Position numbers and translations under genes: made by a program. A DNA stretch of 64,000 bases from a bacterium (GTDB taxonomy: Bacteria > UBA8248 > JACPRG01 > G963555815): NCBI GenBank assembly GCA_965261595.1, contig CBDHDG010000007.1:480001-544000 (forward strand), given 5' to 3'. Below, in pieces: positions 4,082 through 21,125 of this stretch (its first letter is position 1; each line of letters begins with the position of its first letter). The notes beneath the pieces are model-generated. The model was not told where the DNA came from. It did not search any database and saw only the letters and a program-made list of their open reading frames with translations.

Positions 4082-4112
4082 TAGATATCGTACAGTTGAG
4101 AAGGAGAAAAAC

Positions 4113-4886: not shown

Positions 4887-6479
4887 GTGCCCGATTACGA
4901 TGTGATTGTCGTGGGCGCCGGACACGCCGGGATGATGACCGCAACCTATCTGGCCCGGACGGGACTGGACGTCCTGATCATGGAAAAGGGTCTGGAAGTC
5001 GGCGGGGACATGAACACCGAGTCCTTCACCCACCCCGGCTACTGGCATAACCTCCATTCCTATTACCACCTCGGCGTGGACCGGCTGGCCCCCTTCCGGG
5101 ACCTGGAGTTCGAGCGGTTCCACGCCCGCTACGCAACGCCCGATCCCCAAAACGCCCTTCTCCTGGAAGACGGCCGGACGATCATCGGCTCCCTGGCCGC
5201 GGAGAAGACGGCCGCCTCGGTGGGGGCCGTCTCGGCGGAGGACGGAGAGACGGTCCGGGACGTGAACCGCCGCCTGGGCGGGTTTCTCAAAGAGCAGGTC
5301 GTACCCGCCCTCTACGGCGCGCCCCGAAACGGGGGGGGGGGGGACGGCGGCGCCGATCCGCTCGGCGGGTTGCCGGACTCTCGGGAAGCCCGGGAGATCA
5401 TGGAGTTCAAGGATCTGACGGCGGCAGCGGCGGCGGAGCGCCTCTTCAAAGACCCGGCCGTTCAGGCCTTCTACCTCAATCAACTTCCCGTCATTCGCGG
5501 ACTCCGAACCGATGTCCCCGGTCTCGGCCACGTTGTTCTGCTGGCCGTCGCCCAGGCGGAGACGGCGATGCTCCTCGTCGACGGCGGGCCGCACGTCATG
5601 GCCCACGCCCTCTGGCGGGCGATGCTGGCCGCGAAGGGGAAGGTGAAGACCGTTTGCGATTATCGGAAGATCATCGTCGAGAACGGCCGGGCGGTCGGCG
5701 TCGAGCTGGCCGACGGGACGCGCCTGGGCGCGCGGAAATGTGTCATCGGCGCCCTCGGGCTGGAGGAAATCTTCCTGGATCTCGTGGGGAGGGAGAACCT
5801 GCCCCCGGGGCTGGCCGACGGGATCGGCGGCTTCCATTCCTCCAACTTCGCCGTCCTGAGCGTCCACCTGGCGATTCGGGGATCGATCTCTTTCCGCGGC
5901 CGGCACGCCGAGCTGGAGCGGACGTTCAAGGTGGACCTGGGTCCGCAAACCCCGGAGGGCTGGGCCGACCTCTGGAGTGCCGTGGACGGGGGAAGGCCGC
6001 CCGATCCCCTCTGCCTCTCGGCGAGCATCCCGACGGCGTACGATTCTCTTCACGCCCCCGACGGCGGAAGCACGGCCGTGCTATGGGTGCCCGTCCCGTA
6101 CCGGATCGGAGACCAAGGCGTGGACGGCTGGGACGACGTGAAGGACGCGTTCCGGGACGCCTGCATGGCGCGGTTCAACGAAGTCGCGGACCTGTCCCAG
6201 GCGACCATTCTGGACGCGGAGGTCATCTCCCCGGCCGACATCGACCGGGGCGTGGGCAACCTGGACAAGGGCGCGATCCACATGGGGGAGATCATCTACC
6301 GCCGGGATGAGTACTTTTCCAGCGTCCCCGACCTGGCGAGCTACCGGACGCCCATCGAGGGCCTCTACTACTGCGGGTCGTGCACCCATCCGGGAGGCGG
6401 CGTCATCGGGGCGACGGCGTTCCACACCGTGAACGTCATCGCCGATGATTTGGGGATTGAGAAGTGGTGGGCTCTGTAG
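4887..6479 (+). CDS. phytoene dehydrogenase-like FAD-dependent oxidoreductase (COG1233)
   Basis: GAGHAG Rossmann motif; C-terminal YRTPIEGLYYCGSCTHPGGGV; GGAGG RBS, GTG start. Confidence 0.88.
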   Translation: MPDYDVIVVGAGHAGMMTATYLARTGLDVLIMEKGLEVGGDMNTESFTHPGYWHNLHSYYHLGVDRLAPFRDLEFERFHARYATPDPQNALLLEDGRTIIGSLAAEKTAASVGAVSAEDGETVRDVNRRLGGFLKEQVVPALYGAPRNGGGGDGGADPLGGLPDSREAREIMEFKDLTAAAAAERLFKDPAVQAFYLNQLPVIRGLRTDVPGLGHVVLLAVAQAETAMLLVDGGPHVMAHALWRAMLAAKGKVKTVCDYRKIIVENGRAVGVELADGTRLGARKCVIGALGLEEIFLDLVGRENLPPGLADGIGGFHSSNFAVLSVHLAIRGSISFRGRHAELERTFKVDLGPQTPEGWADLWSAVDGGRPPDPLCLSASIPTAYDSLHAPDGGSTAVLWVPVPYRIGDQGVDGWDDVKDAFRDACMARFNEVADLSQATILDAEVISPADIDRGVGNLDKGAIHMGEIIYRRDEYFSSVPDLASYRTPIEGLYYCGSCTHPGGGVIGATAFHTVNVIADDLGIEKWWAL

Positions 6480-6541
6480 GAGCGGGTCCAAGCCTGCCCT
6501 CTGCGACGGCAGGGGGTCCCCGCCCGCTGTTTTGCTTTCGT

Positions 6542-6595
6542 GGCGGGCAAGATGCCCGCCCCACCTCGGTGGGTAGGCCGGGCATCCTGCCCGGC
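6542..6595. repeat. REP doublet, family GTAGGCCGGGCATCCTGCCCGGC
   Basis: Inverted pair of palindromes; the same unit recurs at 11813, 11856, 12513, 12557 and 44302. Confidence 0.8.
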
Positions 6596-6717
6596 AGGAA
6601 TTGATTCATTGCGGAGGCGCCGGCGGACAAGCCGCCAGTGGCACACGGTCCATCGGAAAGAGGTGAAGGGGCGCCGCCGCTTGGTAGTTCGCACCCGCCC
6701 GCCACAGGAGAGAGATT

Positions 6718-8343
6718 TTGGCGCTGAAGGCCGAATACGACGCGATCATCATCGGGGCGGGGCACAACGGCCTGATCCTGGCGGGGTACATGGCCCGGGC
6801 GGGGCTGGAAGTGGTCGTCCTGGAACGATATCTTGAACAAGGCGGGGGCCTCGACACGCACGTGGACCCGCACCACCCCGGCTTCCTCCACAACATGCAC
6901 TCTTTCTTCCACCGCAACCTCACGAACCTCCCCTGGTGGCGGGACCTCCAGGTCGGAGAGTACGACGTGGAATACCTCTATCCGGAAGTGGGCTGCGGGA
7001 TGATGATGGAAGGAGAGCGGTGCCTCCTGCTCTACTCGGACGTGGAAAAAACCCTGAAATCCATCGCGAAGCTCTCGCCCCGCGACGCGGAGACCTGGAA
7101 GGACGTGTATCGCCGGTGGCAAAACGTTGTCCGGGACGTGAGCGAGCCGATGACCTACTCCCCCCCGATCGGCTGGGAAAAGGTAAAAAGCCTCGCGAAA
7201 GGGAGCGAATCGGGCCGTGAGTTCCTCGCCTTCGCCGACAAGTCGCCCGACGAGGTGGCGTCCGAGCTGTTCGAGAGCGACGCGGTGCGCGCGATCCTTC
7301 TCTATCTTGCCGACATCCGGGGTTACGACTCCCTGTCCAAGCGCCTGGGATGGATCATCCCCCACATGATGGCCACGCGCGTTGGCCCCCAGATGGCGCG
7401 CGGCACCTCTCACCGCCTGGCGCATGCCCTGGACGCCAGCGCGCTTTCCGCCGGAGCGGACGTGGTTGAGGGCAGGGAGGTCACGCGGATCCTGGTCGAG
7501 GGGAGCCGCGCGACGGGCGTCGAGCTGAAAAACGGCGAGCGGATCCGCGCCAAACGGTTCATCGCCACCAACACCGGGCCGGCCCAGACCTTCGTGGACC
7601 TCATCGAGCCCGGCCACGTCGATCCCAAGCTGGCCGAGCGGACCAAGGGCTACGAGTACGGCCCCGTCGGTCCCATCTTCTCCATCAACCTGGCCCTGAA
7701 CGAGCGGCCCGTTTACACCGCCGAGAAGCATGAGCCCGACGCGGCGCGGAGTTTCCTGACCGTCGTGGGCCTGGACGCTCCGGAGGACATGCACGAGCTG
7801 CACCGGGCGCATCAGGAGCGCCGACTGCCCAAGAAGCTTTTCTTCAACGGGACGACGCCCACGGTGTTCGACCCCAGCAAGGCGCCCCCCGGCAAGCACA
7901 CGGCCTTCATGTGGCAGTTGGTTCCTTACCACATCGATAACAATCCGCGGAAGTGGCGGGAGATTCATGAAGAGTTTCTGGACGCCCTCCACGACCGGTG
8001 GGCGCATTTCGCCCCGAACCTCAAGAAGCCCGGCGTTATCGTCAACAAGTTCGGCCAGATGCCGCTCGACATCGAGAGCCACGTCACCACCATGGTGGGC
8101 GGAGACTGGATGCACGGCAACATGAGCGAGAAGCAGTTCTACGACCGGCGGCCCCTGCCCGAGCTCTCGGGTTACCGGACGCCCATCGAGGGACTTTTCC
8201 TGTGCGGCTCCTGCACGCATCCGGGCGGGAACATCACGGGCGGGCCGGGTTACAATTCCGCCAAGGCCATCGCCGAAGATTTGGGCATGGACCCATGGTG
8301 GAAGCCCTTGAACTTCGAGGAGCGCCTGAACGGCCTGAAGTAA
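6718..8343 (+). CDS. phytoene dehydrogenase-like FAD-dependent oxidoreductase (COG1233), second paralog
   Basis: GAGHNG; DPSKAPPGKHTA; YRTPIEGLFLCGSCTHPGGNITGGPGYN. Confidence 0.88.
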   Translation: MALKAEYDAIIIGAGHNGLILAGYMARAGLEVVVLERYLEQGGGLDTHVDPHHPGFLHNMHSFFHRNLTNLPWWRDLQVGEYDVEYLYPEVGCGMMMEGERCLLLYSDVEKTLKSIAKLSPRDAETWKDVYRRWQNVVRDVSEPMTYSPPIGWEKVKSLAKGSESGREFLAFADKSPDEVASELFESDAVRAILLYLADIRGYDSLSKRLGWIIPHMMATRVGPQMARGTSHRLAHALDASALSAGADVVEGREVTRILVEGSRATGVELKNGERIRAKRFIATNTGPAQTFVDLIEPGHVDPKLAERTKGYEYGPVGPIFSINLALNERPVYTAEKHEPDAARSFLTVVGLDAPEDMHELHRAHQERRLPKKLFFNGTTPTVFDPSKAPPGKHTAFMWQLVPYHIDNNPRKWREIHEEFLDALHDRWAHFAPNLKKPGVIVNKFGQMPLDIESHVTTMVGGDWMHGNMSEKQFYDRRPLPELSGYRTPIEGLFLCGSCTHPGGNITGGPGYNSAKAIAEDLGMDPWWKPLNFEERLNGLK

Positions 8344-8406
8344 TTCAGCCGATGCCGGCGGACGGACCCGCGCGGGCGCCGCGATGAACGCGGATGAGGA
8401 GGGACC

Positions 8407-9861
8407 ATGGAACGCGCCGGATTGGCGGCAATGACCGATCTGAGAGACTGGCTCGACGTGGTGGAGGATCTGGGCGAGCTGAAGACGGTCCGGGGGGCGC
8501 ACTGGAACCTGGAGATCGGCGCCCTCTCCGAGGCCAATTACAAACAATCGAAGAGCCCGGCGCTGCTGTTCGATGAGATCCCGGATCACCCCCCGGGCTT
8601 CCGCGTCCTGACGGGCGCGTCGGGCTCCCCCCCCCGCCTGGGCGTCGCGCTGCGCATGGGAAGCGGTTTCACCAACGCGGAGCTTGTCAAGGCCCTCCGC
8701 GGCAAGCCCATCGAGTGGGAGAGCACTGCCCCGAACTTCCCCCCCGAGGTTCTGCCGGACGGCCCCGTGAAAGAGAACGTCCTCCTGGGCGGCCAGGTGG
8801 ACCTGTCGCGCTTCCCCACGCCTTTCTGGCACAAGCACGACGGGGGACGCTACATCGGGACGGGGGACGCCGTCCTCATCAAAGACCCCGAAACCGGCGT
8901 CGTCAACCTGGGCGCCTACCGGGTGATGGTTCTCGACGAGCGCCACGTGTCCGTGATGATCATCCCGGGCAAGCACGGGATGCAGTACGCCCGAAAATGG
9001 TTCGCCCGCGGGGAGCGGTGCCCGGTGGCCATCTCGGTCGGCCACGACCCCCTCCTGGCCATCCTTTTGGGCATAGAGATCCCCACCGGCGTGAGCGAGC
9101 TCAACTACGCGGGGGCGATCATCGGGGGCCGATATCCGGTGGTGGAGGGGGAGGTGACGGGACTCCCTATCCCGGCCGCGAGCGAGATCGTTCTGGAAGG
9201 CTGGCTGGAAGAGGGGAAGACGACGACCGAAGGGCCTTACGGCGAATGGCACGGGTACTACTCGGGCGGCGAATATCCGGCCTTCCGGGTCGAAGTCGAG
9301 GCCGTTCTCCACCGCGACGATCCCATCCTCCTGGGCTCCCCGCCCGGAAAGCCGCCCCACGATTACTCCTACTTCCGGTCGGTGATGAAGTCGGCGCTGA
9401 TCTTCGACTCCCTGGTCAAGGCCGGTGTTCCGGCGGTCCAGGGCGTGTGGTGCGACGAGGCGGGCGGGGGCCGGCTTTGGATCAACGTCTCCATCAAGCA
9501 GCAGTTCCTGGGTCACGCGCGAATGGCCGGGTTCGTCGCCTCGCAATGCCACGCCGGGGCGTATATGGGGCGGTACGTCGTGGTGGTGGACGAGGACATC
9601 GATCCCACCGACATCCATGAAGTCATCTGGGCCATGTGCACCCGCTCCGATCCGGCCGGCGATATCGAGATCATCCGCCGGGCCTGGGGCAGCCCCGCCG
9701 ACCCGCTGAACCCCGACAAGAAGACGCCGAAAAGCTCGCGGGGCATCATCGACGCCTGCCGGCCCTACGAGTGGATGGACGAATTCCCCCGCGTCGCCGC
9801 CGCCGACCCGGAGGACCTCCAGGCGATACGGGAAAAGTTTCCGGAGGTTTTCGGGGATTAG
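8407..9861 (+). CDS. UbiD-family decarboxylase, second copy
   Basis: DLRDWL, ALLFDEI, NLGAYR, EGPYGEWHGYY, VVVDEDIDP..WAMCTR. Confidence 0.92.
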   Translation: MERAGLAAMTDLRDWLDVVEDLGELKTVRGAHWNLEIGALSEANYKQSKSPALLFDEIPDHPPGFRVLTGASGSPPRLGVALRMGSGFTNAELVKALRGKPIEWESTAPNFPPEVLPDGPVKENVLLGGQVDLSRFPTPFWHKHDGGRYIGTGDAVLIKDPETGVVNLGAYRVMVLDERHVSVMIIPGKHGMQYARKWFARGERCPVAISVGHDPLLAILLGIEIPTGVSELNYAGAIIGGRYPVVEGEVTGLPIPAASEIVLEGWLEEGKTTTEGPYGEWHGYYSGGEYPAFRVEVEAVLHRDDPILLGSPPGKPPHDYSYFRSVMKSALIFDSLVKAGVPAVQGVWCDEAGGGRLWINVSIKQQFLGHARMAGFVASQCHAGAYMGRYVVVVDEDIDPTDIHEVIWAMCTRSDPAGDIEIIRRAWGSPADPLNPDKKTPKSSRGIIDACRPYEWMDEFPRVAAADPEDLQAIREKFPEVFGD

Positions 9862-9964
9862 GCCGGTTCACCGGAATGACGGATCGGGCGCGCCGTTTCC
9901 GGCCGCCGTTCCGAATGAGGGGACGCCGACCTTCGCGGGGAACCCGCCCGGGCCGATCATCCTT

Positions 9965-11188
9965 GTGATCGCGTCACTCCTCCCCCCCGGACTGCAAGGC
10001 TCGGGACTGAAGGCGCTCGCGTGGGGGTCGGCGGGGGCCGCGGCCGGGGTGCTTCTGTGGCTCATCCCGACGATCCGGATCTCGGGATTGGGTCCCGCCT
10101 GGGACATGATGATCGTCCTGGCCGCGCGCCAACCCCGGGTTTTTTCCAGCGTGGGACAGGGACCGTTTCCGTCCGCGGCCGTCCTCGCGGCCCTGGGCCT
10201 CTGGGCGGCGTTACGGATCGGCCGGACATCCTGGCGGCCGTGGCGGCCCGCTTTGGCGCTCCTCGTCGCGGCCGGGTGCGGGGTCGGCGTCTCGCTGGTG
10301 GCCTTCCCGAAGCTGCTGACGTTGCTTTCGGAGGCGGGACTGCGCGGGCTTGCCGCCCAGGTCGTCGCGGCGCTCCCCCTCAGCGTGATCCTCGTGAGCG
10401 TCTGGACCCGGGAGGCGGTCCCCGGACGCCGGGTTGCGGCGGCCTTCATCGGATGGCAGGCGCTGTTTCAGGTCTTCCAGATCTACCCGGTTGCCGGGAC
10501 GCAGATGGTCTATGCGACGCCCCTCGTCGTCCTCCTGGCCGGCGCGCTTACGTATGCGCTGCTGGATCGACGCAAGCTGCCCGAGAAAAACCGGCGGCCT
10601 CTCAATCTTCCGGTGTCCCGCTCGATCGCCGAGCTGGTGTTCCCGGCGGCGACGCTCGCCTTCCTGCTGCCGTTCCTGGGCCTGGGGGTGATTCCCCTGG
10701 CGAAGGAGCGCCAAAAGGGAATCCCCCTGTCCGCGCCGTCCGCCGCGGGGGTCCGGTTTCAATCGGAGATCGCCCCCAAATTGGAGGCCCTGATCCGGTA
10801 TCTCCGGAGACGCACGGCGCCGGGCGAGCCGATTTTCACCATGCCGGGAATGTCGAGCATCTACATCTGGACGGGAAGGCCGAGCGTCACCCGCTATAAC
10901 GCCACGACCTGGGGTTTGCTGACGCCGGAGATGCAGGAGAGCATCGTCGAGAGGCTGCCGCGCGTCCGCTTTCTGGTGGTGAACCGCAAGTCGCTTTTCT
11001 GGAAGAGCACGGTTCAGCCTGTACGGCTCGCCGGAGAGGGATCGACCCGGTTGCGGGACCGGGTTTTCCGGGACTACGCCCCTCTTCCGCCCGGAGACTG
11101 GCTCGGACCGGGGGCTTCGGACGAAGACCCGGATTTTGAAATCTGGGTTCGGCGAAAAGGCGCGCCGGCCGGACCGCCGCCGTCCTGA
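9965..11188 (+). CDS. putative polytopic membrane protein (possibly 5'-truncated GT-C-like)
   Basis: Several hydrophobic segments then a soluble C-terminal part (TAPGEPIF..IYIWTGR); start uncertain. Confidence 0.55.
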   Translation: MIASLLPPGLQGSGLKALAWGSAGAAAGVLLWLIPTIRISGLGPAWDMMIVLAARQPRVFSSVGQGPFPSAAVLAALGLWAALRIGRTSWRPWRPALALLVAAGCGVGVSLVAFPKLLTLLSEAGLRGLAAQVVAALPLSVILVSVWTREAVPGRRVAAAFIGWQALFQVFQIYPVAGTQMVYATPLVVLLAGALTYALLDRRKLPEKNRRPLNLPVSRSIAELVFPAATLAFLLPFLGLGVIPLAKERQKGIPLSAPSAAGVRFQSEIAPKLEALIRYLRRRTAPGEPIFTMPGMSSIYIWTGRPSVTRYNATTWGLLTPEMQESIVERLPRVRFLVVNRKSLFWKSTVQPVRLAGEGSTRLRDRVFRDYAPLPPGDWLGPGASDEDPDFEIWVRRKGAPAGPPPS

Positions 11189-11225
11189 CCCGAGGTTTTC
11201 GCAAAGAGAAGAGTCTACGGGGAAA

Positions 11226-11723
11226 TCACGCGGTTGGATCGGGGGGCGCGGCGATGTCCCAGTCGCCGAAGTCCTTGAAGACGGCTTCGGCCCTTTCCTC
11301 CAGGACCCCGCGGATGACCTTCACATTCATGCCCGTCAGCCCGACGAGCCGTTCGATGGTGTAGTCCCCCAGGTCATACCGCCCGTTGGAGCAGCGCCGC
11401 AGGGCCTCGGGTCCCGCGCCGATGACGACGGTTCCGACGCCGGAGTAGATGGCGGCGCCGGCGCACATGGGACAGGGGTCGCAGTTGGCGTACAGGACGC
11501 AGCCTCGCATGTCCCCCGAGCGCATCTTCTTCGCCGCCTCCCGGATCGCCATCATCTCCGCGTGGCACGTGGGATCCTTCAGGGAGATGCCGACGCTTTT
11601 CCCCCGGCCGAGGACCTCGCCGTCCTTGACGATGACGCCCCCGTAAGGCAGGTGCCCCTCCTTCACGCCGTCCTCCGCTTCCTGAATGGCCAGGGCCATG
11701 AATTTTTCGTGATCGCCGCTCAC
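11226..11723 (-). CDS. nucleoside/nucleobase deaminase (CDA/TadA/guanine deaminase fold), copy D1
   Basis: DPTCHAE and PCPMC Zn motifs; GGAG RBS, GTG start. Confidence 0.92.
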   Translation of the reverse strand: MSGDHEKFMALAIQEAEDGVKEGHLPYGGVIVKDGEVLGRGKSVGISLKDPTCHAEMMAIREAAKKMRSGDMRGCVLYANCDPCPMCAGAAIYSGVGTVVIGAGPEALRRCSNGRYDLGDYTIERLVGLTGMNVKVIRGVLEERAEAVFKDFGDWDIAAPPDPTA

Positions 11724-11880
11724 GGGGATGCTCCTGTCTTCGCTGTCCGATGTTTTGGAACCGGATAGATCCGCGTGGGTGTCATGTTTCTCATGCGTCC
11801 TTAAGTCTTTGGGCCGGGCAGGATGCCCGGCCTACCGATCGGGTTGCGAGTTGGCGCCGGGCAAGATGCCCGGCCTGCCG
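11724..11880. repeat. conserved deaminase leader plus two REP palindromes (unit 1)
   Basis: 11724-11829 matches 13177-13282 with 6 mismatches in 106 bp; similar to 12425-12580. Confidence 0.9.
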
Positions 11881-11923
11881 GCCGGTGGACAAGCGGTGTT
11901 TTCAAAACAGGCAGGGCGAGGCG

Positions 11924-12424
11924 CTATTCCGACCGGAGGACATTGGGCGAGGCGTCGCCCCAGTCCTTGTACTCCCGGAAGACGGCCTCGGCTTCCTCTT
12001 CCAGCACCCCGTTGACGACCTCCAGGTCCAGGCCGATCAGCTCGACGACGCGCTCGATGGTGTAATCGTTCATGTCGTAAATCGCTCCGGATTCGCGCTT
12101 GAGGGCGGCCGGGCTCGCGCCGATGACGATGGTCCCCGCCCCGGACCAAAGCGTGGCGCCGGCGCACATGGGACAGGGGTGGCACGAGGTGTAGAGGGTG
12201 CACCCGGTCAATTTTGGGGTCTTGAGGTTGGCCGCCGCGTCGCGGATGGCCGAGGTCTCCGCGTGGGCCGTGGGGTCTCCGGTGGAGTTGACGATGTTGC
12301 GGCCCCGGCCCACGACCTCTCCGTCCCGGACGATGACCGACCCGAAGGGCCGCTCTCCGCTCCGGACGGCGGCGCGGGATTCCTCGATGGCCAGGGCCAT
12401 GAACTTCTCGTGGTCGACGCTCAT
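11924..12424 (-). CDS. nucleoside/nucleobase deaminase, copy D2
   Basis: True start MSVDHEKF at 12424 (GGAG RBS); DPTAHAE, PCPMC. Confidence 0.92.
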   Translation of the reverse strand: MSVDHEKFMALAIEESRAAVRSGERPFGSVIVRDGEVVGRGRNIVNSTGDPTAHAETSAIRDAAANLKTPKLTGCTLYTSCHPCPMCAGATLWSGAGTIVIGASPAALKRESGAIYDMNDYTIERVVELIGLDLEVVNGVLEEEAEAVFREYKDWGDASPNVLRSE

Positions 12425-12580
12425 GGGGATTCTCCTGTTTCCGGTGGTCGATGTTTTGGAACCGGGTGGATCCGAAGGGGTGTCATGTTTCTCATACGCC
12501 CTTACACTTTGGGCCGGGCAGGATGCCCGGCCTACCGAATCGGGGTGCGAGTTGGCGCCGGGCAGGATGCCCGGCCTACC
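12425..12580. repeat. conserved deaminase leader plus two REP palindromes (unit 2)
   Basis: Homologous to 11724-11880. Confidence 0.88.
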
Positions 12581-13176
12581 GGGCCGTGTACGGGCTGACT
12601 CTTCCAATATCCGGTAGGGCGGGCAGCGGGTCGGTTGACCCCTTGCCCGCCCGGATACGACGCGCGTAAGCCTTTCACGATCATTGATAAATTGCGCGGA
12701 CAGCACCCTATCTCCTTGGACCAGCCGAATTCTTCCAGGACTTTCTTGGCCTCGGTCTCCAAAATCCCCCGGATGACCTCGAGTGTCATGTTCATCTGTT
12801 CGCTGAGGCCTTCGGCCGTGTAAGTTCTCGGGGTTCGATTGGAGATGCGCGCCAGGGCGGCGGAGCGGGCCCCTACGACGAGGGTGTCGATGCCGGAAAA
12901 GAGTATGGCGCCGCAGCACATCGGGCAGGGGTCGCACGAGGTGTAGAGGGTGCAGCCCTTCAGGGACAGGCTTTTCAGGTTCGCCGCCGCGTCGCGAATG
13001 GCCATCACCTCCGCGTGCGCCGTCGGGTCCCCGGTCGAGCGGGGATTGGCGTATGCGCGCCCGACGACCTCCCCGTCCCGGACGACGACGGACCCGAAGG
13101 GCCGGTCGCCCGCCCGGAGCCCGGCCCGCGACTCCTCGACGGCCAGGGCCATGAACTTCTCGTGGTCGACGCTCAT
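12532..13176 (-). CDS. nucleoside/nucleobase deaminase, copy D3 (ancestral stop at 12708-12710 out of frame; C-terminal read-through)
   Basis: MSVDHEKF start at 13176; DPTAHAE, PCPMC; one extra base before the TAG relative to D4. Confidence 0.88.
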   Translation of the reverse strand: MSVDHEKFMALAVEESRAGLRAGDRPFGSVVVRDGEVVGRAYANPRSTGDPTAHAEVMAIRDAAANLKSLSLKGCTLYTSCDPCPMCCGAILFSGIDTLVVGARSAALARISNRTPRTYTAEGLSEQMNMTLEVIRGILETEAKKVLEEFGWSKEIGCCPRNLSMIVKGLRASYPGGQGVNRPAARPTGYWKSQPVHGPVGRASCPAPTRTPIR

Positions 13177-13351
13177 GGGGATTCTCCTGTCTTCGCTGCC
13201 CGATGTCTTGGAACCGGATAGATCCGAGGGGGTGTCATGTTTCTCATGCGTCCTTAAGTCTTTGGGCCGGGCAAGATGCCCGCCCGGATACGACGCGCGT
13301 AAGTCTTTCACGGCCATCTGTAGAGCGTCGCCTCCCAGCGCGGACAGCACC
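13177..13351. repeat. conserved deaminase leader (unit 3) plus 3' block shared with 12645-12710
   Basis: Leader nearly identical to unit 1; TGCCCGCCCGGATACGACGCGCGTAAG and GCGGACAGCACCCTA also occur downstream of D3. Confidence 0.88.
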
Positions 13352-13819
13352 CTACAATGTGGACCAGTCGAATTTCGCCAGGACCTCCTCGGCCTCGGTT
13401 TGCAAAACCCCCCGGATGACCTCGAGCTTCATGTGCATCTGCCCGGCGAGGTTCTCGGCGGAGTAGGTCCTCGGGGATTGGCCCCGGATCTCCGCCAGTT
13501 TCGCGGAGCGCGCGCCTATGACCAGCCGCTCGATGCCGGAAAACAGCGTCGCCCCGCAGCACATCGGGCAGGGGTCGCACGAGGTGTAGAGGGTGCACTC
13601 CTTCCAGTCGGAACCCTTCAGGTTGGCTGAAGCGTCGCGAACGGCGGACGTTTCCGCGTGGGTCGTCGGGTCCCCGGAGGAGTTGACGGTGTTGTAGGCC
13701 CGGCCGACGACCTCCCCGTTGCGGACGATGACCGAGCCGAAAGGCTGCTCTCCCTTCTGTAGTCCCTTGCGCGCCTCCTCGATAGCCATCGCCAGGAATT
13801 TTTCGTGCCCGTCGCTCAT
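13352..13819 (-). CDS. nucleoside/nucleobase deaminase, copy D4
   Basis: NTVNSSGDPTTHAE, PCPMC; 15 bp downstream of the LLM gene with GGGAGG RBS. Confidence 0.92.
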   Translation of the reverse strand: MSDGHEKFLAMAIEEARKGLQKGEQPFGSVIVRNGEVVGRAYNTVNSSGDPTTHAETSAVRDASANLKGSDWKECTLYTSCDPCPMCCGATLFSGIERLVIGARSAKLAEIRGQSPRTYSAENLAGQMHMKLEVIRGVLQTEAEEVLAKFDWSTL

Positions 13820-13834
13820 GAAAATCGCCCTCCC

Positions 13835-14851
13835 TTATGGGTTGGATGCGAGCCCATCGGCCAAAAGCCGCAGGGCCTTTTTCCTCTCTTCCGCCGTCCC
13901 GCGCAAGGCCAGGACGGGGACCTCGAGACCCGCATCGATGAACTCCGTGATTCGGTCCGCCGCCATCTCGGGCGTTCCGGTGACGCTGTACGCGTGGACG
14001 ACCTCCTCGGGGATGAGCCGCCGGATCGCCTCCCGGTCCTCTTTAACGAAGGCGTCGTTGATGGCGTCCAGGTCCAGTTTCGCCCCGCTGACTTCGTGGC
14101 TCGCCTTGAGGGCCGGGTTCCGGAGGAGGTAGGCGAGACCGGCCTGACTGGCCGCAAGCGCCTCTTCATACGTCTCGAAGATCGAGGTCACGATCAGCCC
14201 CGCGACCAGGAAGCCGTTCCCGGCGCCGCCCCCCCCGCCGCCGTCCCGCTTCCTTCGGCCCTTTTCGACCTGCTCCAGCACCCACTGAATGTAAGGCGCG
14301 GAGACCCCGGCGGAAAGGACGACGCCGTCGGCCGCCTCCCCGGCGAGCCGACACATCTTCGGTCCCACGGCCGCCAGGTAGATGGGAATTCTCGCCTCCG
14401 GGAGGTCGAAATCGATGTGAGCGCCGTAAAGGTTCAGCGTCTCGCCGCGAAACTCGACGCGCTGCCGGCCGGCGTCCCAGAGCCGCCGGGTGGCGGTGAT
14501 CATCTCTCGCATGGAGGCGAGGGGTTTCTTGGGCGACAGACCCATCTCGGCCATGACGTTCGGGTTGCCCGTCCCGGCGCACAGCGCGATCCGGCCCGGT
14601 GCGCACTCGGCCAGGGTGGCGACGCCCATGGCCCAGTAGAGGGGGTGGGCGACGTAGGGGCTGAGGGCGGTGGGGACGACCCGCACGTGTTTCGTCGCGC
14701 CGAGGAAGGCGACGGAGGTCGAGACCGCGTCCCGGTAGCCCAGGTGCTGGTCCGCCCAGACGGAGTGGAACCCCGCCGCGTCGGCGACTTGGCACATCTC
14801 CACCATGTCCGAAATGGGAATGCGGCCGTCGAGGTCGATGCCGAGTTTCAT
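13835..14851 (-). CDS. LLM-class (luciferase-like/Mer-like) flavin-dependent oxidoreductase
   Basis: AGFHSVWADQH, ATKHVRV, PGRIALCAGTG, IPIYLAAVGPKM.RLAGE.ADG. Confidence 0.9.
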   Translation of the reverse strand: MKLGIDLDGRIPISDMVEMCQVADAAGFHSVWADQHLGYRDAVSTSVAFLGATKHVRVVPTALSPYVAHPLYWAMGVATLAECAPGRIALCAGTGNPNVMAEMGLSPKKPLASMREMITATRRLWDAGRQRVEFRGETLNLYGAHIDFDLPEARIPIYLAAVGPKMCRLAGEAADGVVLSAGVSAPYIQWVLEQVEKGRRKRDGGGGGGAGNGFLVAGLIVTSIFETYEEALAASQAGLAYLLRNPALKASHEVSGAKLDLDAINDAFVKEDREAIRRLIPEEVVHAYSVTGTPEMAADRITEFIDAGLEVPVLALRGTAEERKKALRLLADGLASNP

Positions 14852-14959
14852 AAACCGCCCTGATTGGAATCGGGGTGAGCGCCGTCGCTTAGTGTAACGC
14901 CCTTCTTCCAATCGCGAAAGGACGGGTTTTCGGGTGGGTCCGTCGCGGTGGAACCCCGT

Positions 14960-15445
14960 TCATCCCCGTTGTCCGCTCATGCGCCAGGTCATCAACGCGC
15001 CGAGGGTGAGGAAGGCGATTTGTCTGAGGGCTTCCGTCGGCCGCCCTTTAACGGATATTTGGGGCGTCCAGGAAATCAGCCCTTCCAAAGACGGATTGAG
15101 CTCCCGGGCTGAAAAGCGAATGATTTGCGCGTCCCGCAGGAAATCCAATCCGGACGCGGAAACCGATCCTCGCACGATGGGGATGATCGGCCTTTTGTCG
15201 GACGCGAATTCGACCTCCTGACGAACAAGGTCCGATTGGGACCCCTGATTCGAGATCAACGCCAGGACGCACCCGGACTCCAGAATCCGCTCGCGGACTA
15301 TTTTCGGAAGGGATCGGGCCGCTTTCAGGGGCCGGTCCTCATGCGCAATGAGGGGTCTTTGCCCGCCCAATTGAAGCTGTGACGCGATGAACCGAACGAC
15401 GTCGATGTCACCCGGCCTATTACTGATGAAGATCGTAAACGGCAT
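14960..15445 (-). CDS. TIR-domain protein with short hydrophobic C-terminus
   Basis: IFIS..., ILESGCVLALIS, S.LVRQEVEFA (putative catalytic Glu), RPIIPI; GGAGAGG RBS before ATG 15445. Confidence 0.75.
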   Translation of the reverse strand: MPFTIFISNRPGDIDVVRFIASQLQLGGQRPLIAHEDRPLKAARSLPKIVRERILESGCVLALISNQGSQSDLVRQEVEFASDKRPIIPIVRGSVSASGLDFLRDAQIIRFSARELNPSLEGLISWTPQISVKGRPTEALRQIAFLTLGALMTWRMSGQRG

Positions 15446-15599
15446 TGCGCCCTCTCCGCGCGAACTGAACGAACGGATGCCAAAGTTTATCCATTTACAT
15501 TTCGGCGGAAAAGGTAAAGGACTTAATCGTTGATTTTTGCCGCCCCTTGCCGCGGCCCCGGGGTTTTGGCGTAACGGCCGTGGAGATGGTAGAATCGGA

Positions 15600-15839
15600 A
15601 TCGGCCTGAACATCAAGAATGAAGCGACCTGCCGTTTGGCCGAGGAGTTCGTGCGTTTGACCGGCGAGACCAAGACCAAGGCGATGGAGAAACGTTTGGA
15701 TCGCCAGTTCCAAGGGCGGAACCGCGCGGGCGTTGCCGAGTGGTTGATGGAAATCGGTCGGCGCTGCGCGTCCCAGCCGACGCTCGATACCTGGACGCCC
15801 GAAGGAATTCTTTACGACAAGCATGGTTTGCCCAAATGA
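15600..15839 (+). pseudogene. vapB: VapB-type antitoxin (Rv0623/PSK transcription factor family), start codon decayed
   Basis: (I)GLNIKNEATCRLAEE..LTGETKT...LYDKHGLPK; ATC where ATG is expected; ATGA overlap with the next gene. Confidence 0.75.
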
Positions 15840-15976
15840 GCATGGTGGACACGTTCGCTGTCCTGGCGATTCTGTTCCAGGAAGAAAATGCGACGCGATT
15901 CGCCCGGGCGATCGAGTCGTCGAAACTCCCCTGCTCTCCGCGGCCTCTAAGACGTGGAATTGGGGTCCAGTATTGA
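15836..15976 (+). pseudogene. vapC: VapC PIN toxin, truncated
   Basis: MVDTFAVLAILFQEENATRFARAI resembles a VapC N-terminus; homology is lost after ~35 codons. Confidence 0.7.
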
Positions 15977-16142
15977 CAAGAGACAATCATATGAGTGCCC
16001 GTGTCTATGGCCCGATCACTCCGGATGATGTACGAGGGCGCCTGGTATCACGTGATGAATCGAGGCGCCGGGGGCAACGGATACCGACAATCCTCCCGGC
16101 GCTGACAATTGTATGAAGTCGAGAACTGACCCTGGGACCCCA
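15961..16142 (+). mobile_element. internally deleted RAYT/IS200-like (Y1 transposase) remnant
   Basis: 16007-16105 encodes MARSLRMMYEGAWYHVMNRG..., a Y1/RAYT N-terminus; bounded by near-inverted TGGGGTCCAG / CTGGGACCCCA. Confidence 0.65.
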
Positions 16143-16195
16143 GCCGGAGTGGACCGCCCCTGGGTTATTGGACACTCGGGTGAGGGTATTCGACC

Positions 16196-17104
16196 TCATG
16201 CGGCCTCCGCAACTTGAGCGAGTTTTTCCTGCCTTGCCTGGGCCGGCGTTCGGTAGCCGTAGCCCTCGAGAATCCAATGATGGTTGTACAGGTTCTTGAA
16301 CTCAAGCAGCGCCCACCGCAGTTCCTCTACGGTGGCGAAAGAGCGCACCCACAGGAGATTCTCCTTCAAGATGCGGATAAACCACTCACAGTAGCCATTT
16401 CCCTCGGGCGCCCGCACGAAGCTGGGCGAACTGGTCATGCCCAGGTAGGCGATCTCCCGCTGAAAGTCATCGGACAGATAGGCGGGGCCGTGGTCGTGAC
16501 GAACTTTAAGCCCCTCGGCGACATCCGCCTCCAAGCCGGCGAAGCGCTCGGCGACCCCCTGCCGGATCGGCTCCAGGGCCTCGAAGCGGTTGCCGCTCTT
16601 GGCCGCATGGATCCCCACGCAGTCCACCGAGCAGTGATCCACCGCCACGAACACCGAGGCCATCCCCTCCTCGGTGGTCACCGTCGTCGTCATGTCCGTG
16701 CCCCACATTCGGTCGGGCCGCTCGGTGCGGATGGTCCCGTTGTGGGCCTTGGGACCTCGGGGTTTGCCCACCCGGTGGGGGGCCTGAAGCCCCGCCTCCC
16801 GCATCAGGCGACGCACCCGCTCCTTGCTGGTGCGGATGCCCGCGAAGCGCAGCCTCGCCCACACCTTGCGGTAGCCCTCGCCATGGAAGGGAGAGTCCTC
16901 CAGGACCTGCCGGATGTGGCCGAGGAGTTCCGCATCGGTGCACGGGCCCACAGGGCCGCGCTTATTGGGCGTGGGGCGTTCATGAACGGGGACCGCCTCT
17001 CGCCGCCGTTGCGCGTAGACCGTGGAGCGCGCCAAGCCCCAAAGGGCGCACACCCGCTTCAGGCCGTAGGCTCTGCCCGTGGAGGTGAAGCGGGCCTGAC
17101 TCAT
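16196..17104 (-). CDS. ISa OrfB DDE transposase
   Basis: WGTD, HDHG, GNGYCE rve-core motifs; ATGA overlap with OrfA. Confidence 0.9.
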   Translation of the reverse strand: MSQARFTSTGRAYGLKRVCALWGLARSTVYAQRRREAVPVHERPTPNKRGPVGPCTDAELLGHIRQVLEDSPFHGEGYRKVWARLRFAGIRTSKERVRRLMREAGLQAPHRVGKPRGPKAHNGTIRTERPDRMWGTDMTTTVTTEEGMASVFVAVDHCSVDCVGIHAAKSGNRFEALEPIRQGVAERFAGLEADVAEGLKVRHDHGPAYLSDDFQREIAYLGMTSSPSFVRAPEGNGYCEWFIRILKENLLWVRSFATVEELRWALLEFKNLYNHHWILEGYGYRTPAQARQEKLAQVAEAA

Positions 17105-17487
17105 CGCCTCCACCTCCTGCCGGCTAAAGGGCGGCCGGCCTCCAGGCGGTCGATCTTCTCCCGCAGGACCTCGCCCTCCATCGTGAGTTCGCCCACCTTG
17201 GCCTTGAGCCGGGCGTTCTCCTCGTCCCGCTCATCCGCCGGGCGGGCTTTGAGCGCCGCCTCGCCCCCGCGAAGGAACGCCTCGCGCCAGGCGGAAAGCC
17301 GAGCCGCTGTCGTGCCCAACTCGCGGCAGAGCGTCTCCAGGCTCTCGCCCCGCAAAAGACGCAGGACCGCCTCCCGCTTGCGCTGGCAGGAGAACCGACC
17401 CCGCTCACTGCGATGCCCTGGGGCCTTGGCTCCGTTCGCCCTGCGGGCGCCCTCCGCCAAAGCCCCCTCTTGCTTTTGTTCGTTCAT
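17101..17487 (-). CDS. ISa OrfA (HTH/coiled coil)
   Basis: RKREAVLRLLRGESLETLCRELG HTH; LKAKVGELTM. Confidence 0.88.
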   Translation of the reverse strand: MNEQKQEGALAEGARRANGAKAPGHRSERGRFSCQRKREAVLRLLRGESLETLCRELGTTAARLSAWREAFLRGGEAALKARPADERDEENARLKAKVGELTMEGEVLREKIDRLEAGRPLAGRRWRR

Positions 17488-17553
17488 CGCGACACCCCTT
17501 TCTCCATGAATCATGGATCAATCGAGTGTCCAACAAAACCCTAGAGCGGGGGA

Positions 17554-17627
17554 CTCATTCATAGTCACATATTCGAGCAATTGTCTGGAGATATAGAGAT
17601 TTTGCAAAAGCAAGCAATGTCGTTGAC
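17554..17627 (+). pseudogene. internal fragment of the AbiEii gene stranded between two IS
   Basis: AT-rich; joins 20299 via the GAC target duplication; reads LIHSHIFEQLSGDIEILQKQA (1-bp frameshift before the junction). Confidence 0.6.
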
Positions 17628-17669
17628 TGGACTTACCCCGGTTTCGTGGAGAGTTAAGCACTTGGGTTT

Positions 17670-18518
17670 TCAGGGTGTGCGTTGTTGTCTCCTTTCGTAG
17701 TTAACGGGTGACAGGTTGTCGATGGAGGAGTGCCGACGATGCGGGTTGTAGAAGCCCTCGATGAACCCGAACACCTCCATGCGCGCCTCGGCCCGGGTGC
17801 GGAAACTGTGGCGAGCGAGGAGCTCGCACTCCAGCGTGGCGAAAAAGCTCTCACACAGCGCGTTGTCGTAGCAGTCCCCGACCGAACCCATGGAGGGACG
17901 CACGCCCGCCTGCCGGCAGCGCTGCCCAAAGGCGACCGAGGTGTACTGCGTGCCCTGGTCGGAGTGGTGGATGACGGCCCGGGGACGGCGCTTATACAGC
18001 GCCATGTCGAGCGCGTCGAGCACCAACTCGGCCCGCAGGTGTGTGGCCATCGACCACCCCACGATGCGCCGGCTGAACGCATCGAGCGCCACGGCCAGAT
18101 ACAAAAACCCCGCCCATGTCGGAACGTAGGTGATGTCGGCCACCCACAGCCGGTCGGGGGCCTCGGCCGTGAAGTTGCGGTCCACCAGATCAGGGGCCGG
18201 CCGCGCCTCCTGCCGGCGCTGCGTCGTGCGCGCTCCCTTGCGCCGACTGACGCCCGCAAGTCCCGCCCCACGCATCAGCCTGGCGACGCGCTTGCGGCCC
18301 ACACGCACTCCCTCAGCCTCCAACTCGGCATGGACGCGCGGCACGCCGTAAGTCCCCCGAGAACGCTCGTGGATCGCCTGAATGCGTTTGGTGAGCGCCC
18401 GATCGGCACACGAGCGGGCACACGGCGCGCGCCTGCGCCACGCGTAGTAGCCGCTGGAGGAGACGCCCAGCACCCGGCACATGGTGGCGGTCCGATACAT
18501 GGCCTGGTTCGCCCTCAC
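17670..18518 (-). CDS. ISb OrfB DDE transposase
   Basis: WVADITY, HHSDQG, DNALCESFF. Confidence 0.9.
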   Translation of the reverse strand: MRANQAMYRTATMCRVLGVSSSGYYAWRRRAPCARSCADRALTKRIQAIHERSRGTYGVPRVHAELEAEGVRVGRKRVARLMRGAGLAGVSRRKGARTTQRRQEARPAPDLVDRNFTAEAPDRLWVADITYVPTWAGFLYLAVALDAFSRRIVGWSMATHLRAELVLDALDMALYKRRPRAVIHHSDQGTQYTSVAFGQRCRQAGVRPSMGSVGDCYDNALCESFFATLECELLARHSFRTRAEARMEVFGFIEGFYNPHRRHSSIDNLSPVNYERRQQRTP

Positions 18519-18676
18519 GAACCCGTAGATCCGGACGGGATCGAATCGGTCTCCCGAGCAAACCAGGCCGCGGCTTTTGCTAAGATCTCCCGCTCCTGGC
18601 GGAGCTGTCGTCCCCCGCTCTAGGGTTTTGTTGGACACTCGATTGATCCATGATTCATGGAGAAAGGGGTGTCGCG

Positions 18677-19063
18677 ATGAACGAACAAAAGCAAGAGGGG
18701 GCTTTGGCGGAGGGCGCCCGCAGGGCGAACGGAGCCAAGGCCCCAGGGCATCGCAGTGAGCGGGGTCGGTTCTCCTGCCAGCGCAAGCGGGAGGCGGTCC
18801 TGCGTCTTTTGCGGGGCGAGAGCCTGGAGACGCTCTGCCGCGAGTTGGGCACGACAGCGGCTCGGCTTTCCGCCTGGCGCGAGGCGTTCCTTCGCGGGGG
18901 CGAGGCGGCGCTCAAAGCCCGCCCGGCGGATGAGCGGGCCGAGGAGAACGCCCGGCTCAAGGCCAAGGTGGGCGAACTCACGATGGAGGGCGAGGTCCTG
19001 CGGGAGAAGATCGACCGCCTGGAGGCCGGCCGCCCTTTAGCCGGCAGGAGGTGGAGGCGATGA
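18677..19063 (+). CDS. ISa OrfA
   Basis: As in copy 1. Confidence 0.88.
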   Translation: MNEQKQEGALAEGARRANGAKAPGHRSERGRFSCQRKREAVLRLLRGESLETLCRELGTTAARLSAWREAFLRGGEAALKARPADERAEENARLKAKVGELTMEGEVLREKIDRLEAGRPLAGRRWRR

Positions 19064-19968
19064 GTCAGGCCCGCTTCACCTCCACGGGCAGAGCCTACGG
19101 CCTGAAGCGGGTGTGCGCCCTTTGGGGCTTGGCGCGCTCCACGGTCTACGCGCAACGGCGGCGAGAGGCGGTCCCCGTTCATGAACGCCCCACGCCCAAT
19201 AAGCGCGGCCCTGTGGGCCCGTGCACCGATGCGGAACTCCTCGGCCACATCCGGCAGGTCCTGAAGGACTCTCCCTTCCATGGCGAGGGCTACCGCAAGG
19301 TGTGGGCGAGGCTGCGCTTCGCGGGCATCCGCACCAGCAAGGAGCGGGTGCGTCGCCTGATGCGGGAGGCGGGGCTTCAGGCCCCCCACCGGGTGGGCAA
19401 ACCCCGAGGTCCCAAGGCCCACAACGGGACCATCCGCACCGAGCGGCCCGACCGAATGTGGGGCACGGACATGACGACGACGGTGACCACCGAGGAGGGG
19501 ATGGCCTCGGTGTTCGTGGCGGTGGATCACTGCTCGGTGGACTGCGTGGGGATCCATGCGGCCAAGAGCGGCAACCGCTTCGAGGCCCTGGAGCCGATCC
19601 GGCAGGGGGTCGCCGAGCGCTTCGCCGGCTTGGAGGCGGACGTCGCCGAGGGGCTTAAAGTTCGTCACGACCACGGCCCCGCCTATCTGTCCGATGACTT
19701 TCAGCGGGAGATCGCCTACCTGGGCATGACCAGTTCGCCCAGCTTCGTGCGGGCGCCCGAGGGAAATGGCTACTGTGAGTGGTTTATCCGCATCTTGAAG
19801 GAGAATCTCCTGTGGGTGCGCTCTTTCGCCACCGTAGAGGAACTGCGGTGGGCGCTGCTTGAGTTCAAGAACCTGTACAACCATCATTGGATTCTCGAGG
19901 GCTACGGCTACCGAACGCCGGCCCAGGCAAGGCAGGAAAAACTCGCTCAAGTTGCGGAGGCCGCATGA
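19060..19968 (+). CDS. ISa OrfB DDE transposase
   Basis: As in copy 1. Confidence 0.9.
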   Translation: MSQARFTSTGRAYGLKRVCALWGLARSTVYAQRRREAVPVHERPTPNKRGPVGPCTDAELLGHIRQVLKDSPFHGEGYRKVWARLRFAGIRTSKERVRRLMREAGLQAPHRVGKPRGPKAHNGTIRTERPDRMWGTDMTTTVTTEEGMASVFVAVDHCSVDCVGIHAAKSGNRFEALEPIRQGVAERFAGLEADVAEGLKVRHDHGPAYLSDDFQREIAYLGMTSSPSFVRAPEGNGYCEWFIRILKENLLWVRSFATVEELRWALLEFKNLYNHHWILEGYGYRTPAQARQEKLAQVAEAA

Positions 19969-20014
19969 GGTCGAATACCCTCACCCGAGTGTCCAATAAC
20001 CCAGGGGCGGTCCA

Positions 20015-20237
20015 GTCGGTTCTCGCGGCGAAGTCGGCGCAACTCCTCCCGCTCATCGCTCGTGAGCCCGTCTTTGCGACGCCCCTCGTCAACGTCGGCT
20101 TGATGGGCCCAGGTGCGGATCGTCTGCGCCGAGGGCTCGAACTCGTGCGCCAGCGCCTCGGGCGTGCGTCCCGCCCGGACCAACTCTACCATCTGGCAGC
20201 GGAACTCCATTGGATAGCGTGGGTGAGTCTGTGGCAT
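20015..20237 (-). pseudogene. ISb orfA 5' part (3' part at 18515-18610)
   Basis: MPQTHPRYPMEFR...LRREN, identical to the intact orfA at 22776. Confidence 0.88.
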
Positions 20238-20295
20238 CGTGAACACCTCCTTTACCCCCAAATCATCAGGTGTCCACCAAACCGGGTCAACTCCA

Positions 20296-20769: not shown

Positions 20770-21125
20770 TCTCCACCTCTCGGAATACTCTGTTTCCTTC
20801 ATGTTATGTGCCAGAAAGAAATCAAACCGAAATTCCTTTTTCCGCAAGAGGCGCAAGGCGGATTCCGGGTACACATCGGCACGGTCCAGATAAAAACCGA
20901 TGGCCTGCTCGTATGGATAAATGTAATCCAATTTCTTGAGGATTGCTGAGAGGCGGTTGATGGAAATCATTTTCTCTTTGGCCGCTCGAAATGCTTTCAA
21001 GACTTCGAATATACCGCTGGAATACTCCCGCCTAACGGTGATATCGATCAATGTGCGTTCGAGGTTGGTAACACGTATATGGACCGCCCCTGGGTTATTG
21101 GACACTCGGGTGAGGGTATTCGACC

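Follow-up and report, generated by a model that had tools for sequence, protein, structure and literature searches.

The window considered here, a stretch of 64,000 nt from contig CBDHDG010000007.1 of a bacterial genome, carries on its minus strand a tandem array of four diverged zinc deaminase genes (D4, D3, D2 and D1, in the order of reading) directly behind a gene for an LLM-class oxidoreductase. With a confidence a little above even, we read it as a catabolic or salvage operon in which four small-molecule aminohydrolases differ in their substrate preference. The metabolic neighbours of the array, the presence of a separate TadA in the genome, the intact catalytic sites and the differences among the gating elements all point to deaminases of small N-heterocycles. 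We infer the small-molecule substrates, the differing specificities, the homodimeric state and a functional link to the LLM protein and a molybdenum enzyme. Coordinates are positions in the window; the genome that holds it is called G000, and C5 and C7 are contigs of that genome.

The LLM gene (13835-14851, minus strand, 338 aa) is the first of the LLM-deaminase unit, and its stop codon lies 15 nt from the ATG of D4. D4 (13352-13819, 155 aa, ATG at 13819) and D3 (12532-13176, 214 aa as read here) are deaminases of type B, and D2 (11924-12424, 166 aa) and D1 (11226-11723, 165 aa, GTG start) are of type A; all five genes are co-oriented. Every deaminase passes PF00383 (dCMP_cyt_deam_1), with 88.1, 93.3, 86.4 and 92.7 bits for D1 to D4 at a cut-off of 25, and H54-A55-E56 and P83-C84-P85-M86-C87 are invariant in their alignment. 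The same HAE/PCxxC residues, read from relatives, are kept in all 14 array members as well as in the related deaminases of loci L015 and L016. An earlier, sequence-only reading had described four co-oriented HAE/PCxxC deaminases 15 bp behind an LLM gene, all with their catalytic motifs kept, and its coordinates and all its details hold. The observation of four distinct zinc deaminase genes is real.

Pairwise protein identity is 45-67% (D1 against the rest 45-55%, D4-D3 67%, D4-D2 58%). The loop before DPTxHAE reads GKSVGISLK in D1, GRNIVNSTG in D2, AYANPRSTG in D3 and AYNTVNSSG in D4, just as the sequence-only reading had quoted it. The C-terminal segments, which it had found to differ, fall into two kinds in the alignment, '...YD..DYTIER...' in D1 and D2 and '...SPRTY.AE...' in D3 and D4. 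In D2 and D4, the loop Asn (Asn43), 11 residues before the zinc His, is aligned with the Asn of guanosine and guanine deaminase. It is replaced by Ser in all four sequences of the D1 clade (Ser43 in D1) and by Ala in D3 and its L068 orthologue, where an Asn follows one position later (Ala43-Asn44 in D3). According to passages of PMC11963756 and PMC9081823, enzymes of this family act as dimers, and the beta2-alpha2 loop together with a C-terminal helix or loop closes the pocket and gates substrate choice. The same passages describe the C-terminal element as the one that decides the substrate in yeast cytosine deaminase, guanine deaminase and TadA. The earlier statement that loop and C-terminal element shape the pocket agrees with these passages, which name both as gates.

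On sequence grounds, D1 to D4 are distinct members of the group of TadA, GuaD and guanosine deaminase (GSDA-like), COG0590. The best solved sequence match of D4 is the Arabidopsis guanosine deaminase (E 5e-27, PDB 7dbf), with further matches to plant cytidine/deoxycytidine deaminase, TadA and the guanine deaminase of Bacillus subtilis. For D2, the best solved match is B. subtilis guanine deaminase (E 9e-24), then TadA and guanosine deaminase. An AlphaFold model of D4 alone, made with a 42-row alignment, reaches a pLDDT of 94.8, and the PDB entries that match it best are without exception deaminases of this fold. The model compares to guanosine deaminase with a TM score of 0.79 at 40-43% identity and to TadA with 0.82-0.85 at 28-35% identity. 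In D2 and D4, the C-terminal third does not align to the family gating segment of 7dbf and 1wkq, and the match ends near residue 103-107.

Two identities within this group were considered and rejected. The TadA model NF008113 is the best NCBIfam model for all four deaminases, though it scores D1 at 79.5, D2 at 78.0, D3 at 84.6 and D4 at 84.8 bits against an equivalog cut-off of 150, and the genome has a separate TadA at C7:834269 (167.7 bits). The assignment to the TadA/guanine-deaminase fold in the sequence-only reading stands in this form, as distinct members of the group with the TadA proper elsewhere. A non-catalytic subunit of the ADAT3 type does not apply either, as HAE is kept in all four; ADAT3 lacks the catalytic Glu. 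In the whole genome, PF00383 has 14 matches: eight in two copies of the array, three in further paralogues, one in TadA, one in a 400-aa open frame that we take to be a putative RibD, and one other.

The array is shared with relatives. A search with one genome per species gave 26 related loci, four of them from this bacterial family. The LLM gene stands beside a deaminase in these four only; the other 22, from other phyla, have one deaminase and no LLM gene. In the same genus, L011 (genome G001) has three copies in the order LLM-D4-D2-D1. L012 (G006, listed as one contig) and L013 (G004) both read LLM-p1-p2-p3-p4, and in L014 (G003) the LLM gene and a D2-like gene are followed by the contig end. 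Among metagenome contigs, L068 reads LLM-D4-D3-D2 up to its end, with a D3 90% identical to that of the window, L066 reads LLM-D4 up to its end, and L067 ends at the LLM gene. The comparison of copy number suggested in the sequence-only reading yields three to four copies behind the orthologous LLM gene: three in G001, four in G004 and G006, at least three in L068 and at least one in G003 and L066. The four-copy state is therefore not unique to this genome. An LLM orthologue (E <= 1e-60) is present in seven of the 41 genomes searched, G000 included, and in four of the six other genomes of the family. Two 2.1-Mb genomes of genus g2 have none, and two genomes of a second family have 43%-identical relatives only. 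G003 has a second LLM copy (62% identical), with no deaminase within the 10 kb fetched around it. A full-text search of the literature outside subscription-only papers returned no account of GuaD/TadA-like genes in tandem or of their link to an LLM gene, in agreement with the sequence-only reading, to which no such four-copy operon was known. Such an array is also not described in the passages concerned of Iyer et al. 2011 (PMC3239186), PMC11963756 and PMC9081823.

Trees were made with 23 rows and with 51 rows, the latter including four from L066 and L068 and 24 of the 120 listed database relatives. In the 51-row tree, type B forms a clade (support 100) with the D3 clade, D4 together with p2 of genus g4, p1 of g4, and single-copy genes of other phyla, including those of L015 and L016. 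The type-A clade (support 86) has D2 with p3, D1 with p4, and the G003 gene. The D1 clade with p4 has support of 99/100 in the 23-row tree and 100 in the 51-row tree. Orthologues of D4 are found in G001, L066 and L068 and as p2 in G004 and G006, and those of D2 in G001 and L068 and as p3 in G004 and G006. By these clades, a four-copy array begins with a type-B pair and ends with a type-A pair in either genus. Orthologues of D1, D2 and D4 are common to the genera, and the fourth member is D3 in genus g1 and p1 in g4. Because G001 is without D3 and g4 carries p1, this fourth member appears replaceable.

For seven orthologue pairs, the ratio of non-synonymous to synonymous substitution rates (dN/dS) is 0.04-0.25; for the pair G006_p4/G004_p4, dS is saturated and gives no ratio. 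Between paralogues within the genome, dN/dS is 0.39 (D3-D4) and 0.59 (D1-D2). By these comparisons, the array is an old, long-maintained set with some birth and death of copies and no recent amplification. The sequence-only reading had spoken of a diversifying repertoire for modified nucleobases or N-heterocycles. The word "diversifying" does not fit, since the lineages are old, common to genera and under purifying selection, and the repertoire is a maintained one; the rest of the claim suits the neighbourhood, with its EamA genes, molybdenum hydroxylase and F420-type LLM. In G006, the spacer between p2 and p3 (L012 5316-5441) still reads a type-B C-terminus (...VVRGVLQDEAEKVLEEYDRSKL), the relic of a lost copy. 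In other phyla, the single-copy type-B deaminase of L015 adjoins an Amidohydro_2 gene and a UbiD gene lies near the deaminase of L016; no LLM or molybdenum gene was seen in the surroundings of these two deaminases.

The array is neither a chance pattern nor a misassembly, as the independent assemblies of relatives and the cover by DNA runs show. In an assembly from long reads of a genome rich in insertion sequences (IS), repeats could have been mis-joined. The spacers of the array indeed hold repeated hairpins and leaders, one IS has at least 179 copies in the genome, and no short-read contig bridges two deaminase genes. The lack of bridges is due to the repeated spacers, at which short-read contigs break. 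Against such an artefact, the same order is found in the independent assemblies of G001, G004, the single-contig G006 and L068. The stretch 10513-14874 (the array, the LLM gene and part of the downstream gene) recurs at C5:131009-135369 with 99.95% identity; the two copies differ at 2 of 4362 positions (a substitution at 14352 and an indel at 14871), yet their flanks differ. In two DNA runs, each from another study, all unique array segments are covered by Logan contigs at a depth of about 6-9 (X1) and 7-11 (X6), like the flanks. Three contig joints, with short sides of 22-26 letters at hairpin repeats, were treated as repeat joins. A mis-joined array is scarcely credible on this evidence.

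Since the array is present twice, the genome has eight array deaminase genes. This second copy, an extra base in D3 and a leader shared by the three long spacers had escaped the sequence-only reading. The two copies belong to a larger duplicated segment, some 16 kb long and more than 99% identical (window 1-16149 against C5:128160-146290). The duplicates differ in IS insertions, and C5 is without 4244-10512 of the window (two FAD oxidoreductases, UbiD and part of a membrane protein gene). Two metatranscriptome libraries have contigs on parts of the LLM gene, D4, D3, the spacers and a piece of D1, and one of these contigs crosses the LLM-D4 junction. They have none on the flanks 10400-11175 and 14862-16025, both covered by the DNA runs. 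Most of D2 and most of D1 are without RNA-contig cover, which is not evidence of silence.

Redundancy is another way to account for four neighbouring genes of one family. The copies would then amplify the dosage of a single activity, with some of them drifting to loss. Several events in these genomes favour this view: D3 is absent from G001, a spacer of G006 still contains the remains of a deaminase C-terminus, C5 carries a further copy of the whole array, and the reading frame of D3 is shifted in this genome. One extra base at 12711 puts the TAG of D3 out of frame and adds 59 residues from the spacer; the D3 orthologue of L068 ends ...DWSKE* at 155 aa. The extension follows the complete native C-terminus, so the extra base only appends residues, and it is absent from other populations. 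It is present in both genome copies and in run X1, and absent in X6 (DNA), X15 (RNA library) and L068. As the X6 and X15 contigs are without it, the base is regarded as a polymorphism of this strain. Moreover, the copies are just 45-67% identical, belong to lineages common to genera, have orthologue dN/dS of 0.04-0.25 and differ above all in the pocket-forming loop and the C-terminus, all of which makes redundancy improbable.

A further alternative, already named in the sequence-only reading, is that the paralogues are the subunits of one hetero-oligomeric deaminase, either as A/B heterodimers or as a mixed tetramer. Partners would complete or gate each other's active sites, as with the swapped C-terminus of B. 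subtilis guanine deaminase or in ADAT2/ADAT3. The make-up of the four-copy arrays in two genera, two type-B genes and then two type-A genes, is what such a complex would lead one to expect, and the orthologues of D1, D2 and D4 occur together in G000, G001, G004 and G006. The non-canonical loops of D1 and D3 could mark specialised partner subunits. Furthermore, passages of PMC3239186, PMC11963756 and PMC9081823 present the relatives as obligate dimers with subunit communication, and the active site of guanine deaminase as inter-subunit. Other properties of the array speak against a complex. All four proteins have the full catalytic set, unlike partners of the ADAT3 type, and the fourth member can be missing (three copies in G001) or exchanged (p1 for D3 in g4). 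In other phyla, a type-B relative can stand alone (L015, L016). A search for fused two-domain forms of D2 with at least 292 residues gave none at E <= 1e-25, which is weak evidence. We consider the hetero-oligomer rather unlikely.

The reading as an operon of small-molecule aminohydrolases draws on the genes that accompany the array. The LLM protein matches PF00296 with 177.6 bits (cut-off 27.9). Its best NCBIfam match is NF002619 (Mer, F420-dependent methylenetetrahydromethanopterin reductase), with 160.1 bits against a cut-off of 276, and all other F420-type LLM models also remain below theirs. Among solved structures, F420-dependent Mer enzymes come closest (E 1e-31, PDB 1z69, full-length alignment). 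Two genes of F420 biosynthesis, for the F420 ligase CofE (252 bits) and for CofD (171 bits), are neighbours on C7. From these matches, the LLM protein is Mer-like and probably F420-dependent.

Upstream lies a gene for the molybdopterin-binding large subunit of the xanthine dehydrogenase family (24314-26761, minus strand), with the Pfam domains Ald_Xan_dh_C, MoCoBD_1 and MoCoBD_2. In L013, the gene immediately before the LLM gene is 79% identical to it. Two EamA-family transporter genes precede it on the same strand. The first (27786-28685) is the upstream end of the conserved cluster; tblastn with the L013 EamA protein matches it at C7:507795-508607 with 63% identity, and the second (26783-27661) at C7:506789-507604 with 66%. 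The L013 EamA protein matches PF00892. In L013, the order on one strand is EamA, molybdenum subunit, LLM and four deaminases, and in L012 it is molybdenum subunit, an Amidohydro_2 gene, LLM and four deaminases. The molybdenum gene is directly upstream of the LLM gene in L013, L067 (425-nt gap) and L066. In this genome, the two are parted by an IS cluster (16150-23980) of elements with many near-identical genomic copies, which is absent from this place in L067, L066, L012 and L013. As the molybdenum gene runs straight into the LLM gene in near relatives, the cluster is a late insertion.

The genome is unusually rich in molybdenum hydroxylases, with 28 Fer2_2 matches and more than 20 large-subunit paralogues that are 30-46% identical to the one in the window. 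One of the deaminase paralogues outside the arrays (C7:457090, 48% identical to D4) is directly behind a 971-aa frame with Fe-S and molybdopterin-binding domains (C7:454411-457533), a second pairing of a molybdenum enzyme and a deaminase in this genome. The other two paralogues are found by SDR and creatininase-family genes and by an octopine-dehydrogenase-like gene and an amidohydrolase, respectively.

The IS cluster and a neighbouring open reading frame (ORF) raise the question of defence. The space between the IS cluster and the LLM gene contains a TIR_2-domain ORF (14960-15679, minus strand; PF13676, E 2.4e-9). The deaminases could act on nucleic acids or nucleotides, in the editing of tRNA, RNA or DNA, in anti-phage nucleotide depletion or as toxins. 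Their fold is as near to TadA as to the small-molecule enzymes, and there are weak matches to the MafB19, SNAD4 and Bd3614 deaminase models and to the anti-phage dCTP deaminase. These defence and toxin matches do not go beyond the motifs: they span about 46 residues and score 18-31 bits, where the cut-offs are 27-400. The anti-phage dCTP deaminase itself (NF041025; PADLOC dCTPase) was rejected as a candidate, at 19-28 bits against a cut-off of 400 over about 46 residues around the zinc motifs. PADLOC gave no match for the TIR ORF and only the motif-level dCTPase matches for the deaminases. In addition, the TadA cut-off is not reached and a true TadA is found elsewhere, proteins of 155-166 residues leave no room for a toxin-delivery or immunity module, and the genes conserved around the array are metabolic. 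In relatives, neither the IS cluster nor a complete TIR ORF occupies this place: of the ORF, only the C-terminal half is found there in L066, and nothing in L067. The TIR ORF is probably outside the operon, and a role in defence or on nucleic acids is very improbable.

In the proposed small-molecule operon, the cluster would run on one strand from two EamA genes over the molybdenum subunit and the LLM gene to the four zinc aminohydrolases. It would act on amino-substituted N-heterocycles, such as nucleobases, nucleosides, and pterin-like or triazine-like compounds. Each deaminase would most likely form its own dimer, like the solved relatives, and hydrolyse an exocyclic amino group by means of the zinc bound by His/Cys/Cys and the Glu of HAE. 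Because the beta2-alpha2 loop and the C-terminal segment differ among the four, the enzymes may cover different substrates, or else successive amino groups of one substrate. The oxo-products may then pass to the molybdenum enzyme and the LLM protein for hydroxylation or reduction. Purines, pterins and triazines as substrates are guesses from relatives and neighbours.

A bolder version sees the array as an assembly line or as a mixed type-A/type-B complex, whose oxo-products are handled by a Mer-like F420 enzyme together with the molybdenum enzyme. As an assembly line, the deaminases would remove several amino groups one after another from a poly-amino N-heterocycle, for example a diaminopurine, a precursor of pterin or deazaflavin, or a triazine like melamine or ammeline. 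As a complex, the type-A and type-B partners would form one multi-site deaminase. If true, the pathway would be undescribed, and the enzyme would be the first heteromeric one of the TadA/GuaD family in bacteria to act on small molecules. We regard it as doubtful.

Several observations weigh against the small-molecule operon as proposed. For the molybdenum subunit, the nearest solved relative is the alpha subunit of 4-hydroxybenzoyl-CoA reductase (E 2.4e-128) and not a purine hydroxylase; nicotine-pathway, CO and quinoline enzymes come next. None of the 28 genomic Fer2_2 matches adjoins it, and no gene for an Fe-S or FAD subunit is found in its neighbourhood. What links it to the deaminases is gene order. 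The matches to guanosine and guanine deaminase span only about residues 4-107 of 155-166, and the C-terminal part that sets specificity is, as far as the alignments reach, without a characterised counterpart. The database names of the close relatives ('nucleoside deaminase', 'TadA') are automatic. As for the set of four, it is not constant, with G001 lacking D3 and g4 having p1 in its place. Within the genome, dS between paralogues is 0.63-0.65, lower than the 1.0-3.3 between orthologues of different genera. The low values may come from shared codon bias or from gene conversion. Finally, the RNA evidence consists of assembled contigs from RNA libraries, which are no proof that the array is transcribed, or transcribed as one unit.

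The genes of the array are separated by spacers of a common design. The starts of D3, D2 and D1 are each preceded by about 109 nt, made up of a GC-rich hairpin and then a leader of some 85 nt with AGGAG at its end. On the minus strand, these units lie at 13177-13285 upstream of D3 (5' hairpin 13265-13285), at 12425-12532 upstream of D2 (hairpin 12512-12532, second hairpin 12557-12576) and at 11724-11832 upstream of D1 (hairpin 11812-11832, second hairpin 11856-11875). The spacers are mutually 86-90% identical, compared with 67-82% for the coding sequences. The leader is confined to the two arrays of the genome, and the hairpin (GGCCGGGCAGGATGCCCGGCC and variants) has about 40 genomic copies and is REP-like. 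Genus g4 has short spacers without the leader, and the D3-D2 spacer of L068 has about 30 nt. This distribution suggests a spread of the leader within the array in genus g1. An Rfam scan of 10500-16200 at E <= 1 gave five weak matches far under the gathering scores, all on the hairpins. The consensus fold of five leader copies has 25 predicted pairs, in none of which a compensatory change is seen; a structured leader RNA is thus unsupported. A promoter and terminator scan of 10900-15300 gave no promoter-like site and one terminator-like site on the plus strand, fewer than in shuffles; inside the array, the minus strand has no site of either kind.

Downstream of D1, the genes converge on the array. 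They are those for a membrane protein, a UbiD-family decarboxylase and two FAD oxidoreductases, and they are not counted in the unit. The FAD oxidoreductases (amine-oxidase/phytoene-desaturase type) and UbiD occupy 4887-9861. The genes downstream of the array in G004 and G006, an FkbM methyltransferase, two DHO_dh-like genes and a tetrapyrrole methylase, were considered as members of the cluster and rejected, because they are about 500 kb away in this genome. Among the mobile elements, an IS of 1.4 kb with two ORFs, which we take to belong to the IS3 family, has at least 179 full-length and 16 partial genomic copies with a median identity of 99.7%, for instance at 16150-17553, 18655-20050, 21080-22484 and 28940-30340. 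A second IS of 1.26 kb has 35 full-length and nine partial copies, and both elements together make up about 5% of the 6.17-Mb genome.

COG0590 deaminases serve as base editors and prodrug activators and are the textbook case of substrate choice by a gating loop. Four natural variants with the same catalytic core and different gates, long kept together, constitute a comparison set for specificity. If the array works with an F420-type reductase and a molybdenum enzyme, it would represent an uncharacterised breakdown route for amino-substituted nitrogen rings, in a host group that is uncultured and unusually rich in molybdenum hydroxylases. If it holds only four ordinary base deaminases with overlapping activities, the interest would be local.

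Among known systems, the CDA-fold guanine deaminase (B. subtilis GuaD, PDB 1wkq/1tiy; Nitrosomonas europaea NE0047) has the same fold, the same HAE/PCxxC zinc site and a similar size. It has the loop Asn in common with D2 and D4, and D1 and D3 are without the canonical Asn position. Guanine deaminase is not known to occur in a four-gene array, only as a single gene. The match of D2 stops near residue 103, and its C-terminal specificity segment is for this reason unrelated by sequence to that of GuaD. Guanine deaminase is presented in passages of PMC11963756 and PMC9081823 as a dimer whose pocket is gated by the C-terminal element. The plant GSDA (PDB 7dbf) is the best sequence match and the best small-molecule structural match for D4, with the loop Asn aligned. 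The alignment is limited to residues 6-106, and a nucleoside specificity of D4 does not follow from it. A link of GSDA to an LLM gene or a molybdenum enzyme is not known.

TadA has the same fold as D4 (TM 0.82-0.85), but D1 to D4 reach 78-85 bits against the cut-off of 150. ADAT2/ADAT3 is, from passages of PMC3239186 and PDB titles, the precedent for a heterodimer of paralogues; D1 to D4, in contrast, all keep the catalytic Glu. The mycobacterial Msd (PDB 5xko, 8wlw) is described in passages of PMC11963756 and PMC9081823 as a dimeric COG0590 enzyme that deaminates 5-azacytosine, ammeline and further mutagenic bases, with gating loops that set its specificity and a gene in a conserved cluster. 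It matches D2 and D4 at E 1e-14 to 1e-16 and is more distant from them than guanine and guanosine deaminase. According to a passage of PMC9081823, its neighbours are efflux genes, and not a molybdenum enzyme or an LLM gene. Mer can be aligned with the LLM protein over the full length, yet the LLM protein stays under the equivalog cut-off and, unlike Mer, it sits in a bacterial operon with deaminases.

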